From the NCBI GenBank assembly GCA_963706715.1, contig CAVPNI010000003.1, positions 905,878 to 969,877 on the forward strand: DNA of 64,000 nucleotides, given 5' to 3'. Below, piece by piece: positions 51,650 to 64,000 of the stretch. This stretch comes from an uncultured Verrucomicrobiae bacterium. GTDB lineage: Bacteria > Verrucomicrobiota > Verrucomicrobiia > Chthoniobacterales > Xiphinematobacteraceae. Position numbers and translations under genes: made by a program. The notes below the pieces were generated by a model. It made no database searches and was not told the origin of the DNA. It was given only the letters and a program-made list of their open reading frames with translations. The stretch's first letter is position 1. Each line of letters opens with the position of its first letter.

Positions 51650-52159
51650 CTATGACGAGCGCCGAGCCCCTAAGATTTTTTGAATTAATTCTTTTACTTC
51701 GCTTTCAACATTTGTATTTAGCATTGAATTAAGCTCGTTATACACGCGCTGTGACGGAACCCTTTCTAAGGCGGTAATTGCGGCTGTTCGTTCATCAAGG
51801 TTCCCGTTACGCAGCAAATCGAGTAAAGGCAAGATGAGTTGAGGTTCTGGGTAATTTGCGGCAATTTGTGCATTCCAGTAACGAACAGACCTATGCCGAC
51901 TTGATAAGCCGTTTTTTAGGGCTTGGATGACCGTGTCATTGGGAAATCTTACAATGACGTCCTCAACAAGTTGATAGACCCCATGAGCATCGCCCTCTCC
52001 GAAGGAATTTAACAGTAGTGGAACACACCTGTTATCTCGATGCATCGTGAAGTGTTGCAGCACATCATCAAAGTGCTTAATCAAATCATCTGACAACTCA
52101 ACTGTCGGTGGCATGGGTTGATGCTGCCTAAGAAAATTAAGAGCTTCTTCCGTTGTCAT
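51650..52159 (-). CDS. Immunity protein 1 (HEAT-repeat, helical)
   Basis: ATGA overlap with toxin 1 stop; HEAT-like repeats (VRYWNAQIA, ERTAAITALE). Confidence 0.75.
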   Translation of the reverse strand: MTTEEALNFLRQHQPMPPTVELSDDLIKHFDDVLQHFTMHRDNRCVPLLLNSFGEGDAHGVYQLVEDVIVRFPNDTVIQALKNGLSSRHRSVRYWNAQIAANYPEPQLILPLLDLLRNGNLDERTAAITALERVPSQRVYNELNSMLNTNVESEVKELIQKILGARRSS

Positions 52160-53100
52160 GGTAGGTTTCCGACTTTCCGATTAAATTCGATCATTTCTTT
52201 CAATTGCTGATTTACAAAAGAACGATCATAGCCAGCGTTGCGAAGAATGTTTCTAAGATTCCAGACATCGGCTGCAAGATTACTGACGTTACTACCCAGG
52301 TCAACATTTTTGCCATAACTTCTTGTTAACCGATGTAGCTCCTTCCGAATATTGATTGTTACTCCCAGGCTATGCGAAGTCGAGCTAACCGCCACCTGAA
52401 CGCTATGATGTGGCGTGTGTGTGAGGTTCAATCCAGACTTTAAGTTTGCTCGACGTGCTTCTCCATAAAGCCCCACAAACAAATCTTCACCTGCTGAAGG
52501 ACGCGGGATGGTTATGAAATCGGCATTCCTAGAAAGAGGACGAATACCTTTAGAAATAATTCTAGCGGGGACGGAACCCGGTGCAGCAATAATAGACCCA
52601 GCCGCCACCAAATTGGAAACTATTGAATTCGGATCATAGGAGCCAGCGCGCGCATAAGGGGAAAGCCTTTCATTGAGCCAGGCTGCGTCTCTATACAAGT
52701 GGTGAGGTTGCCCTATTAAATCGAGTCCCGTGCCCGCTATGCTAAAGAAGACTGAAATCCCGCCCGGCACTGCATCGAGAACTGTATCGGCAATTGAATG
52801 GCTGACATTACTGATCTGTGTCCTCGCGTTTTGCCCAACTTGCGTAGCGATTCTCCCGGTAGGATCGGTCCAATTGGTAGGGTATGTCTGTTCTGATGCG
52901 ATTTGCCAGGATATTTGGATTTTATCCTGTTGATTTACAGAGAGAACGATGACTTTTGGCAGGCTCGTTTGGAGACTGTTGTAAAAAATTTTCCAGACGC
53001 TGTTTTTTGATGCATCAGGCAGACACGTCCAGACAGCAGCTATGATCCATAGAGCAAGAAGCCATGAAGGCAGGAGTATTCTTTTAGCTGCGGGGAACAT
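52156..53100 (-). CDS. Constant secretion-leader fused to Rhs-type toxin tip 1 (His-rich, nuclease-like)
   Basis: 74-aa leader identical to 60927 ORF, then TNWTDPTG; C-terminal HH...H motif. Confidence 0.8.
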   Translation of the reverse strand: MFPAAKRILLPSWLLALWIIAAVWTCLPDASKNSVWKIFYNSLQTSLPKVIVLSVNQQDKIQISWQIASEQTYPTNWTDPTGRIATQVGQNARTQISNVSHSIADTVLDAVPGGISVFFSIAGTGLDLIGQPHHLYRDAAWLNERLSPYARAGSYDPNSIVSNLVAAGSIIAAPGSVPARIISKGIRPLSRNADFITIPRPSAGEDLFVGLYGEARRANLKSGLNLTHTPHHSVQVAVSSTSHSLGVTINIRKELHRLTRSYGKNVDLGSNVSNLAADVWNLRNILRNAGYDRSFVNQQLKEMIEFNRKVGNLP

Positions 53101-53144
53101 GGCAAGCAGCTAAGGATAAGCAGCTAAATAAAGAAGGCGAGTTT

Positions 53145-62060: not shown

Positions 62061-62062
62061 TT

Positions 62063-64000
62063 TTATTTCTCCGCTAGCATGCTGTTTTCTTTTTCCTGGA
62101 AGCTAGTAGTCTCCGAAAGCTCATAGATAAAGGGTTTAGCTCCGTTTTGATAGGGCTGACTTGGCCCTAACATCCCCCTAACTTTGGCCTGACCAGGGGG
62201 TGACGGGTCTTCATTTTGCCCTAACCGGTCACCGTTTTGGCCTGACGGGTCAGCATCGTACTTTAGTTTTTCCGGGTCGATGAGTCCCATGATAAATTTT
62301 CCGCCATCATTTCCTTCTCCGGAGTAGAGGAGTTCGTAAACATAGCTCTGGCCTTTGCCACTGCGATGCAGAAGCAGGTATTCCATTTCTTCCAGGCGGT
62401 GAAGATGGATTTTCAATGCACTATCGCTCCAGCCGATCCAGTTGCGTATGTCTCGACGGGTAAATCGAAGGTCACTCTGTTTGATGGCTAGTCGCTGGCA
62501 TTCGGCTGTTACTCGCTCTTGGATAAGGTTGAGTAAACGCCGTGTCTGTGGCGGCAGTTCGTCGAGGCTACGTCCCAGGGCTTCCCCGGATATGCGGTTG
62601 GCGATTGCAATGTCCTCAATGGTAACTTCGATGTACTCGAGTCCCTTCCCATCGCGCTTAAGTAAACGCTGGTATTGGTGTAAAAAGGCAATGGTGTCTA
62701 TCAGGGTGAGGTATTTTTCGTGGTCTCTTCGGGTCCGGGTTCGGTCGTCAAGGAAGGTGAGTTGTCGGGCAAAGGGGTTAACGACTTTCAAGGGACGCAA
62801 GAGTCGTTGTGCGTTTTGATGGGTAACAAGGATGGAAGCCTTTTTTTGTTTTCTTTGTACACCTTCTAATGTCCGCTTTTCACGCTGTAGTTCGTGGATG
62901 GCTCTCGTTTGTTCCCGACTCTCATCTACGCTCAAGATGATGCAGCGGTTCATGAGTTCTTCATCGATGTCGATGGCGGTTGTGGTCAGCATGATCATCA
63001 CAGGTCCTTCAACTCGGTATTCTTGGGTGATCATTCGGCCGCTATTGGGATCTTTGCCGGTACTGGCGATGGCCAGTTCTCTTTCGCTTTGAAGGAGCTT
63101 CAAAGCATAGGAGGCGCGTTCGGCTCCTTCTTCTTCAACAATGGCTAGGACTTTGTGTTTGAGATCAGTGTCTCCAAGGTAGTAAAGGCTCTGGCCAGTC
63201 ATGGCCGAGTATTTGATGCGCTCTTCTTCGGGAATGAAGGCAAGGATGGCTTCCATTAGTGATGATTTCCCGGCTGCGCTGGTACTCTGGATGAGGACGG
63301 CGAGCGGTTCATCGAGTTTCCGGGAGATGGCTGCAAGGTAGCCAACGAGTTTGTTGGTGCTCTCTCCAACGATGCCGCATGCTTCGTAATCGGCAAGGAT
63401 GCGGTCGAGGAGTTTGGGATCTTTTAAAAGGTTTAGGGCTATTTCCCGTTCGTCTTCTGGAAGGCTTATTTGCTTGTTCTGCGGCTCTATTGCTTTGCGG
63501 ATGTTTTCTTCTTGAAGCTCTTCGAGTTTTAATAGGATCAGTCCCAGGTCGCGTTTGAGGATTTCGGTTGAAAGTTTTGTGGCCTCAGCAGCTTGTTCTA
63601 TAAAGTGGTAGCGGTGTTTAGCATTGCACATGTCAAGCGTGTCCAGGTGAAAGGTGTCCGAGTGTTTGCGCATAGCTCGCAGTTGCACTTTTAAGGTCTC
63701 AAAGCTCAGGTTCTTGGCTAATCCTCGTACTCGGTATTCCCGCTCTCCACTCCACAGGTGGATGTCTTCTCCGCGCAGCTCGATTTCCATTCCGTGTGCC
63801 GCTAAGGATGAGGCGGCAGCTAAGAAGGAAGACTGCGGATTCAGGATTGGTGCTGGTTCAGAGACAGGTTCTTTTTTCTTAGCTGCTTCTTCTCCCCGCT
63901 GCTGCGCTATCACTTCATCGTAGGGTGCGGGAATGAAGGGCCACGGCGCCCATCCTACTCCGGTTTTCAGTCCTTCGTTGGTGACGCATGGTTGTGGCTC
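62063..64000 (-). CDS. Primase-ATPase (copy 2; 5' part beyond window)
   Basis: Identical to the C-terminal part of 54236-57310. Confidence 0.92.
   Translation of the reverse strand, partial: EPQPCVTNEGLKTGVGWAPWPFIPAPYDEVIAQQRGEEAAKKKEPVSEPAPILNPQSSFLAAASSLAAHGMEIELRGEDIHLWSGEREYRVRGLAKNLSFETLKVQLRAMRKHSDTFHLDTLDMCNAKHRYHFIEQAAEATKLSTEILKRDLGLILLKLEELQEENIRKAIEPQNKQISLPEDEREIALNLLKDPKLLDRILADYEACGIVGESTNKLVGYLAAISRKLDEPLAVLIQSTSAAGKSSLMEAILAFIPEEERIKYSAMTGQSLYYLGDTDLKHKVLAIVEEEGAERASYALKLLQSERELAIASTGKDPNSGRMITQEYRVEGPVMIMLTTTAIDIDEELMNRCIILSVDESREQTRAIHELQREKRTLEGVQRKQKKASILVTHQNAQRLLRPLKVVNPFARQLTFLDDRTRTRRDHEKYLTLIDTIAFLHQYQRLLKRDGKGLEYIEVTIEDIAIANRISGEALGRSLDELPPQTRRLLNLIQERVTAECQRLAIKQSDLRFTRRDIRNWIGWSDSALKIHLHRLEEMEYLLLHRSGKGQSYVYELLYSGEGNDGGKFIMGLIDPEKLKYDADPSGQNGDRLGQNEDPSPPGQAKVRGMLGPSQPYQNGAKPFIYELSETTSFQEKENSMLAEK

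Follow-up and report, generated by a model that had tools for sequence, protein, structure and literature searches.

Known systems of toxin tip exchange

For the way in which Rhs and other polymorphic toxins take up and trade C-terminal warheads and the matching immunity genes, the sole explanation so far has been homologous recombination, with orphan cassettes that are themselves of unexplained origin. In Rhs toxins it reportedly takes the form of 'C-terminal displacement', with orphan toxin/immunity arrays and orphan-mediated exchange. Here we analyzed a 64,000-nt stretch of the genome of an uncultured Verrucomicrobiae bacterium (genome G000, contig C3, positions 905878-969877; hereafter the window), the right edge of which coincides with the end of the contig. 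The window is best explained as containing two tandem copies, of four in the genome, of an approximately 7.8-kb integrative, self-replicating element, in which genes for a primase-ATPase and a XerC-type tyrosine recombinase precede a short constant leader fused in frame to differing Rhs C-termini (tips). The best explanation for the recombinase family, which spans phyla, is that it recombines the rhs DNA encoding the conserved core-end, where the variable tip begins. For the element itself, we consider it on balance probable that the recombinase acts at the core-end/tip junction, gives the cargo tip and its immunity gene to a resident Rhs core and retains the displaced pair behind the leader.

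The R64/IncI shufflon consists of the Rci recombinase, sfx sites and PilV C-termini, according to the accessible text of two reports (PMC5430464; bioRxiv 10.1101/2024.10.25.620183). Acidobacterial relatives of the locus studied here resemble it in having a tyrosine recombinase beside an array, short asymmetric sites in coding DNA, a constant N-terminus with interchangeable in-frame C-terminal segments, and multi-segment inversions. Unlike in the shufflon, the target is an Rhs toxin, each segment has its own immunity gene, the recombinase is accompanied by a primase, by regulators and in some cases by a relaxase, and the spare segments are translated behind a dedicated leader. Since the sites in the window are co-oriented, integration and excision would be expected there rather than the inversion typical of a shufflon. 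The further shufflon details used in this comparison are general background.

The rAID-1 islands of Bacteroidales comprise a XerD-family recombinase, orphan immunity gene arrays and integron-like intergenic repeats (bioRxiv 10.1101/471110), and XerC/D genes occur beside polyimmunity loci (Zhang et al., 2012; PMC3482391), as far as the available portions of these papers describe them. By that description, our locus shares with rAID-1 a Xer-family tyrosine recombinase at the 5' end, co-oriented toxin-related cassettes and an integron-like logic. The islands are described as holding orphan immunity genes and intergenic repeats and as serving defence, whereas in our locus the reading frame of the toxin contains the site and each cassette consists of a tip and an immunity gene. 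From bee-gut Snodgrassella and Gilliamella, 'Rhs-associated integrases' were reported, and the accessible part of that paper suggests that they may serve 'recombinatorial capture' (Steele et al., 2017; PMC5727410). The two cases are alike, by description, in that integrase-like genes recur next to Rhs loci; the available text of that report, which calls for further work, is silent on site, junction, leader, primase and mechanism. Another paper (PMC3414803) was rejected as an Rhs report, the matches in its accessible text being to the catalytic-motif string 'RHS-Y'.

As in C-terminal displacement, a new tip would replace the old one at the PxxxxDPxG core end, and old tips with their immunity genes accumulate downstream; a Ralstonia locus described below gives the classic picture, with a duplicated core fragment. 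Unlike in that process, which involves homologous recombination and no vector, the incoming tip is linked to a replicating, recombinase-encoding element, and the displaced tip gets a start codon and a leader where that process leaves a core remnant. Also known are integrative elements that enter a gene at its 3' end and bring a substitute for that end, namely tRNA-targeting islands and phage 21 and e14 in icd. Common to these and our locus are a recombinase gene beside the attachment site, a site in conserved coding DNA and a target rebuilt with an element-borne 3' end; unlike there, the replacement end here would be deliberately different (a new toxin and immunity gene) and the displaced end would be kept expressed. 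As interpreted here, the element combines known logics: those of a shufflon or integron, of integrative mobilizable elements and of Rhs tip displacement. In the literature searched, which did not include subscription-journal papers and supplements, neither an Rhs shufflon nor a primase-recombinase element exchanging Rhs tips was found to be described.

Structure of the repeated element

A position-by-position comparison of 52880-56173 with 60707-64000 gave 0 mismatches over 3294 nt at an offset of 7827, and a repeat search gave equal spacing, which confirmed the duplication proposed in the initial annotation. Below 52880, identity drops to 22-32% per 100-nt bin, i.e., to random level, with the first mismatches at 52879, 52878, 52877 and 52876. 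The repeat spans the C-terminal part of the primase, the recombinase, 73 leader codons and two bases of the following Pro codon; identity therefore ends, as had been annotated, within the Pro codon that opens PxxxxDPTG. Contig C3 ends within the second copy (copy B) and cuts the repeat there, so that 3294 nt is a minimum length.

The two leader-tip open reading frames (ORFs) occupy 52156-53100 (314 aa) and 60049-60927 (292 aa) on the minus strand, where all genes of this section lie unless marked (+). They have the 73-aa leader MFPAAK...SEQTY in common and continue as P-TNWT-DPTG and P-VNYV-DPTG, respectively. Leader A (52882-53100; 73 codons, MFPAAKRILLPSWLLALWIIAAVWTC...SEQTY) starts with an ATG 44 nt past the integrase stop and has a signal-peptide-like hydrophobic core (maximum Kyte-Doolittle score 2.25, residues 8-22); leader B (60709-60927) is identical. 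Tip 1 (52156-52881) begins at P74 (PTNWTDPTGR...) and matched no Pfam or NCBIfam family; its N-terminal part of approximately 130 aa is common to other tips of the genome, and the C-terminal approximately 110 aa are unique. Tip 2 (60049-60708) also begins at P74 (PVNYVDPTGR...) and scored 19.9 bits for TreTu_C, under the cut-off of 27. Of the annotated 'unrelated toxin-like domains', the lack of relationship in sequence stood, and no toxin family above cut-off could be assigned to either window tip.

The genes 3' of the tips overlap the tip stop codons by 4 nt (ATGA and TTGA). The first (51650-52159, 169 aa, ATG start) has a Pfam HEAT_2 match (E 1.6e-7), and its position alone suggests an immunity role; the second (59696-60052, 118 aa) has a TTG start, with an ATG 6 nt onward, and matched neither Pfam nor NCBIfam families. 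The tips and the genes 3' of them are putative toxin/immunity pairs. Neither leader-tip ORF contained an RHS_repeat or YD family of Pfam or NCBIfam, as a YD/RHS repeat shell would; matches to PF05593 fall in other genes of the genome, including a 3062-aa frame upstream of copy D. TIGR03696 (Rhs core-end) also had no match in either ORF, though both carry PxxxxDPTG.

Recombinase A (53145-54233, 362 aa) matched Pfam Phage_integrase (E 1.9e-38) and belongs to the XerC subfamily NF002331 of NCBIfam (421.4 bits, cut-off 371), while it remained under the cut-offs for the chromosomal equivalogs XerC (226 of 335) and XerD (230 of 330). With 109 bits against a cut-off of 265 for TIGR02249, it does not fall in the class of integron-type integrases. 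XerC-type recombinases use short simple sites. Recombinase B (60972-62060) is identical to recombinase A. Primase-ATPase A (54236-57310, 1024 aa), the stop codon of which lies 2 nt ahead of the integrase ATG, is DnaG-type in its N-terminal half, with a CHC2 zinc finger (E 4.7e-20) and a Toprim domain (E 9.2e-18) in Pfam and a dnaG domain score of 171 bits, under the NCBIfam equivalog cut-off. Its C-terminal half contains a Walker-A motif and had no sequence match in PDB. Of primase B (62063-64000), only the C-terminal 645 codons are present, open-ended at the end of contig C3.

Divergent from the primase is an Xre/RstR-like helix-turn-helix (HTH) regulator (57388-57849, +; HTH_3 E 5.4e-12; RstR family 48 bits, under cut-off), homologs of which adjoin the primase in relatives. 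Upstream of the primase are also two small ORFs of 66 and 100 aa (57839-58343) with no Pfam or NCBIfam family, the larger of which is also found in copy C, and a second Xre/RstR-like HTH regulator (58411-58800, +; HTH_3 E 2.7e-11) with a 47% identical homolog in the closest relative, L008. The spacer between the element body and immunity-like gene 2 (58801-59695) had no tRNA or Rfam match, and identity to copy C ends in it at 59275. This position was considered as an attachment site and rejected, since copy C carries its extra relaxase module there. Within the spacer, 59461-59622 includes approximately 135-160 nt that recur at C3:206488-206621 (90%) and C3:529814-529975 (87%), also without Rfam or tRNA match. 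The full repeat unit (52882-60708, 7827 nt) thus contains tip 2, immunity-like gene 2, spacer, regulators, primase, recombinase and leader. All junctions near the element in the window are co-oriented and do not form an inverted-site array of the shufflon type.

Copies of the element in the genome

The genome (3.04 Mb in four contigs) contains four copies of the primase-integrase-leader unit, which are 98.3-100% identical genome-wide. Copies A and B lie in the window, copy C at C1:5905-12332 (99.8% identical) and copy D at C3:756382-762118 (98.3% identical). All of them encode the recombinase and the DnaG-type primase-ATPase. All four have the same leader, which passes into a different tip in each of them, always at a single codon boundary (...QTY / PTNWT, PVNYV, GINWT, PVVYT -DPTGR), so that further copies with different tips at the same codon, anticipated by the initial annotation, do exist. 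Upstream of the boundary, the leader has no sequence similarity to Rhs cores or orphan leaders. Because the leader, both in this genome and in L008, is without homology to Rhs cores, homologous exchange cannot make leader/tip junctions with four first codons.

The expectation that rhs genes would share the tips was borne out as well, by full-length rhs genes or orphan cassettes. Full-length Rhs genes of the genome end with ...SYALGN/PVVYTDPTGR, and orphan cassette arrays are also present. Copy D is located directly 3' of a 3062-aa Rhs gene on the same strand, and its tip is the same as that of the Rhs gene over the first 389 nt of the tip; upstream of the tip, the number of identical bases is 0. 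This tip, which is outside the window, contains a TNT domain (E 7.5e-25), the sole above-threshold toxin family call among the four copies. The left side of copy D was overwritten by insertion sequences. The start of the copy C tip is nucleotide-identical over the 48 nt compared to tips of contig C4 that stand behind an Rhs core remnant and orphan leaders. Copy C is preceded by a further tip/immunity pair, beginning 7 nt from the start of contig C1; between this pair and the regulators lie two small genes and one that encodes a TrwC relaxase including an AAA_30 helicase domain (E 1.3e-75). The relaxase makes copy C probably mobilizable. On C4, a homologous module is also present, there behind a different Rhs-fragment tip/immunity pair.

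Orphan cassettes unlinked to the element (C3:752784-755532 and C4:9715-21007) have a second, unrelated family of hydrophobic leaders (M..LLLLLIGTTSVLARVVSSSS...GLFCNGN). These leaders are joined to many different tips; the join comes behind 4-5 residues of the Rhs core end and uses the codon boundary described above.

Recombinase family and its link to Rhs core-ends

A recombinase scan with one genome per species yielded 142 relatives, from which 72 loci were kept; 80 loci from metagenomes formed an independent sample (loci are numbered with L throughout). Most relatives are 45-55% identical to the window recombinase. The family spans at least seven phyla, its hosts being mainly Acidobacteriota, Myxococcota, Planctomycetota, Actinomycetota, Gammaproteobacteria, metagenome-assembled genomes (MAGs) labelled as Deltaproteobacteria, and Verrucomicrobiota. 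In many loci, the same 1000-aa primase and a divergent HTH gene are found upstream of the recombinase. Tandem copies are common (L008, L009, L011, L013, L014, L019, L023, L036, L038, L051/L053, L061 and L065). In L014, L019, L038 and L008, the identity of the tandem units stops within the ORF just 3' of the recombinase, which consists of a short N-terminus, an Rhs core-end and differing tips.

TIGR03696 was found above cut-off 3' of 18 of 38 recombinase copies, with three more under the cut-off and four recognized by eye only; the match is usually limited to the last approximately 45 profile positions. As a secondary measure, a local hidden Markov model (HMM) was built from TIGR03696-type hits and applied to copies with at least 1 kb of downstream sequence. 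By this measure, a same-strand core-end lies within 2.5 kb 3' of the recombinase in 45 of 72 genome copies (within 1 kb in 32) and, with the same limit of 2.5 kb, in 34 of 47 metagenome copies. The HMM gave 65 hits in the 168 kb of these downstream windows and 96 in the 1775 kb of other sequence. In the majority of Solirubrobacterales and Actinomycetota loci, no core-end was present downstream of the recombinase. A core-end was also present upstream of 21 of 27 primase starts, on the same strand every time, in part within very long open frames (L010, 1819 aa; L014, 1455 aa; L044, 1711 aa; L054, 1926 aa). Full-length Rhs genes stand just upstream of the arrays in copy D, L008, L010, L014, L172 and L173.

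Cultured isolates of Janthinobacterium and Ralstonia keep the gene order of the family. Among plasmid records, 241 have a match to the primase, which in 30 cases extends over 80% or more of the protein. The RefSeq annotation of a complete Janthinobacterium lividum plasmid lists a 2290-aa repeat protein, one small ORF, genes for an HTH and a toprim protein, 'xerC' and then small ORF pairs, with an Imm26 immunity protein among them. The core-end terminates both the large Janthinobacterium protein and the Rhs gene of Ralstonia solanacearum Po82. The signal-peptide-like leader proposed in the initial annotation is confined to the clade of the window and L008; in other clades, the N-terminus is short and basic and leads into a core-end fragment.

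In L022, an Acidobacteriota MAG locus, a primase and a recombinase stand on one side and a second, opposite-facing recombinase of the family on the other; together the recombinases bracket one '>' cassette and five '<' cassettes.

A conserved site and inversions in Acidobacterial relatives

Among 44 diverged, mostly Acidobacterial elements, the DNA TACTACCGCGCCAGATACTACGA, with which the coding sequence of the core-end opens (YYRARYYD), shows conservation of 90% or more at every codon position, the third included; the adjacent recombinase gene has ordinary third-position decay in the same elements. With 0-1 mismatch, this 23-mer was found on both strands: all 40 core-ends next to a recombinase contain it, as do 64 of the 70 others. 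In the Acidobacterial maps, between one and three leader-site-tip cassettes of one orientation come after the recombinase; they face opposite-strand cassettes and a full-length Rhs gene. The opposite-strand Rhs part upstream of the site measures >1891 aa in L035, 1602 aa in L055, 1357 aa in L058 and 1006 aa in L165. Many of these site-bearing loci have no primase.

Positions 11167-15702 of L055 correspond to 15707-11171 of L062, inverted and 99.9% identical, and its ends coincide with a '>' site and a '<' site. Between L110 and L117, which have 99.8-100% identity, there is one inversion, the two alignments overlapping only in a 44-nt stretch that contains the site. L033 and L039 differ by five reshuffled segments. 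Judged from these alignments, the site-bounded inversions are shufflon behaviour and tie the recombinase family to core-end DNA, and the loci L035, L055, L058, L062, L165, L043, L110/L117 and L033/L039 are candidates for an 'Rhs toxin shufflon'.

Closest relative of the element

The recombinase of L008 is 71% and its primase 64% identical to those of the window. The leader is homologous and signal-peptide-like, and it ends ...NQTV / PVNLMDPFGLGP, with a different tip behind it in each of the two units. Exactly one period (7206 nt) upstream, the 41-nt block occurs a third time, behind a genuine Rhs core (...GGINLYAYTGGD) and not behind a leader. The 1540 nt past this core/tip junction equal the leader/tip region of unit 1 with 0 mismatches, and identity upstream of it is 25%. 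The order on the contig is therefore Rhs core / (tipA-immA-body-leader) x2 / tipB-immB / ordinary genes, and the junction block stands at both boundaries of the 7206-nt repeat unit. The 36-nt junction block before tipB differs at positions 12, 18, 28 and 30 (4 of 36); as the differences begin at position 12, the exchange took place within the first approximately 11 nt of the block.

Proposed mechanism

The mechanism proposed here builds on the anatomy of the element, the four junctions, the family-wide linkage to core-ends, the site conserved at the DNA level, and the site-bounded inversions and repeat units of relatives. The 7827-nt unit would be the circular form opened at the leader/tip junction, with tip 2 as the cargo of unit A. 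An excised circle would read ...recombinase-leader/tipX-immX-regulators-primase..., a layout in which an intact leader-tipX ORF is carried together with its immunity gene. The recombinase would join the site of the circle to the core/tipY junction of a resident rhs gene. The product would be Rhs core/tipX-immX-body-leader/tipY-immY, in which the host delivery protein bears the toxin of the element, and the displaced tipY and its immunity gene would remain translated behind the start codon and leader of the element. Repeated events or dimers would give tandem arrays with different tips. We infer that such a circle exists and that the recombinase of the window element makes the leader/tip junctions.

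A broader proposition joins these parts: a recombinase family dedicated to the core-end would act in Acidobacteriota as a chromosomal 'toxin shufflon', flipping a tip and its immunity gene in frame onto an Rhs gene of full length, and, where combined with a primase, repressors and sometimes a relaxase, as in the window, would form a mobile replicon that installs its own tip on the host Rhs and keeps the displaced tip and immunity gene expressed. We give this joint proposition an even chance of being correct.

If true, the mechanism would provide a vector for new tips, an enzyme for their in-frame installation and a way to keep old immunity genes expressed, the first two being the missing vector and enzyme behind the C-terminal displacement of polymorphic toxins. 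The element would be a selfish one that arms its host against cells without the element. The mechanism would add shufflon-type programmed variation for toxins and a class of mobile elements whose spread kin discrimination may drive. What is observed in the window is the local face of a widespread system. The question is now directly testable: a candidate site of 23 nt has been defined, inversion variants occur in nature, and some carriers are in culture.

Several observations weigh against this mechanism. The 19 junctions of the window genome contain no frozen DNA block, only GATCCNACNGGNAGA-like similarity driven by the amino acid sequence. No circle, excision product or empty site was found in the window genome, and four genomes of the same genus had neither the element nor a syntenic empty site, two of them (about 0.9 Mb) lacking the recombinase. 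Near-identical element bodies carry differing cargo on both sides, which a simple one-site model does not predict, and copy D is flanked by the perfect 389-nt direct repeat. The breakpoint differs by lineage, being before PxxxxDPxG in the window, after it in L008 and at the first YDP in L019, and it is diffuse in L014 and L061. Site-bounded inversions are known from relatives only (L055/L062, L110/L117), whose recombinases are about 47-50% identical to that of the window and many of which have no primase. Tandem units could also be produced by homologous exchange between element bodies, and the Ralstonia strains described below display a homologous crossover. The annotated idea that the recombinase works on core-end DNA has strong support at the level of the family, from the frozen 23-nt site, the inversion breakpoints and the unit boundaries of L008.

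Searches for circular forms and other attachment sites gave the following results. Terminal overlaps were found in 0 of 28 whole-contig loci. The right flank of the element (window approximately 49060-51570), met in the empty-site comparison with same-genus genomes, is itself a multi-copy module. No tRNA, tmRNA or Rfam match was obtained in 48000-64000, which rejects an RNA gene as the attachment site there. By-eye inspection for palindromes around the window junction gave nothing convincing. Among the phage matches listed, only the N-terminal part of the primase was matched, at no more than 30.5% identity, and 0 phage records cover 80% of the query, so that the element is not phage-like by that comparison.

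Alternative explanations

The main rival is that the element is a small replicon or integrative plasmid with orphan Rhs tip cassettes, which enters and leaves rhs loci by host homologous recombination of the Campbell type, using core-end or tip sequence held in common; the XerC-type recombinase would then serve elsewhere (multimer resolution or an unrecognised site), and the exact junction would be a homology edge. Tip exchange through homologous recombination with orphans is reportedly established for Rhs genes and counts in its favour. The strains IBSBF1503 and Po82 of R. solanacearum provide a further argument for it. Their flanks are 99.4-99.8% identical, and about 8.9 kb of Po82 is absent from IBSBF1503. 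In IBSBF1503, tipY is fused to the Rhs core itself. The same core ends in tipX in Po82, where the element comes next; beyond it, the final 1079 nt of the core are present once more, and the displaced tipY stands behind this duplicate. There are 3 differences in 6.3 kb (left flank and Rhs gene) up to the left edge of the duplicated fragment; divergence is about 3% inside the left 1079-nt copy, and the right copy differs only in its first approximately 90-380 nt. To judge from this distribution of differences, the pattern is that of one reciprocal homologous crossover around the duplicated core fragment, and not of an exchange at a short site; it fits insertion and deletion alike. The comparison shows that the element takes along the tip to which the Rhs core is fused and that host recombination is able to do the joining. 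The 389-nt perfect repeats around copy D are likewise compatible with homologous recombination, and the variation of breakpoint positions among lineages is also in keeping with it.

Against this stand the leaders of the window genome and L008, which have no homology to Rhs cores and yet show four first codons, and the junction of L008, where only a 36-nt block with 4 differences is shared. A 23-mer invariant at synonymous sites, with inversions ending there, is unexpected from RecA exchange between diverged inverted repeats of approximately 130 nt. Across phyla, the distance from the recombinase to the core-end fragment 3' of it is short and fixed. Homologous recombination, which had been named as an alternative from the start, is a real contributor that explains at least one event (Ralstonia); the leader junctions of the window genome cannot have been made in this way, and as the general explanation we regard it as unlikely.

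Among very close strains of this species, the Po82 megaplasmid locus (L172) was also compared with H30/H31, two strains 99.8% identical, and the match ends about 30 nt before the end of the orphan core-end. The break suggests a further tip exchange at the orphan core-end.

An integron-like expression platform, in which tips captured from rhs genes are expressed as free, Sec-exported small toxins with no Rhs cage, appears improbable. The signal-peptide-like hydrophobic core of the leader in the window and L008, the second, unrelated hydrophobic leader family at the head of orphan cassettes in the genome, and the tight coupling of leader-tip and immunity genes would suit such a platform. It is contradicted by the attachment of arrays to full-length Rhs genes on the same strand, by the non-hydrophobic leaders of other clades and by the low score of the recombinase against the integron-integrase model; moreover, we know of no route by which a bare tip enters a target cell. 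The annotated phrase 'no Rhs cage' was accordingly misleading, because arrays sit just 3' of full-length Rhs genes, and cage-less secreted toxins are the least supported part of that interpretation. It is more likely that the main effect is delivery of the cargo tip to an Rhs core and that the leader-tip ORF holds a displaced or stored tip.

That the tandem duplication is an assembly artefact of a multi-copy repeat is very improbable: although the contig ends inside copy B and C1 and C4 also break at Rhs tip junctions, the unique tip 2, immunity-like gene 2 and spacer separate the copies, the other two copies stand in unique contexts, and tandem arrays of the family occur in unrelated genomes inside multi-megabase contigs (L014 in a 3.7-Mb contig, L051/L053 in a 3.37-Mb chromosome).

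Other features of the genome and the window

The assembly breaks at Rhs-related repeats. Contigs C1 and C4 start 6-7 nt before a tip junction, and C3 ends inside the element; C1 ends approximately 0 nt past an Rhs core end, and the ends of C2 and C4 lie in near-identical Rhs genes. Genome size ranges widely within the genus: the complete single-contig genomes G001 and G003 have approximately 0.9 Mb vs. 3.04 Mb here and are without the recombinase.

The multi-copy module at window approximately 49060-51570 encodes a protein with triple HTH_17 (49350-49982, -) and three RadC-like paralogs (50320-51512). It repeats at C3:486833, C1:219830 and C3:330693 with 89-92% identity and is found at approximately 70-80% identity in same-genus genomes. 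Farther left, positions 46597-48237 (+) encode a 473-aa coiled-coil protein, the C-terminal part of which continues in a 68-aa ORF after a stop at 48018. By eye, this part resembles the toxin domain of PVNFCDPTGR tips on contig C4; here the domain is interrupted and stands on a non-Rhs N-terminus, with a 173-aa ORF next to it.

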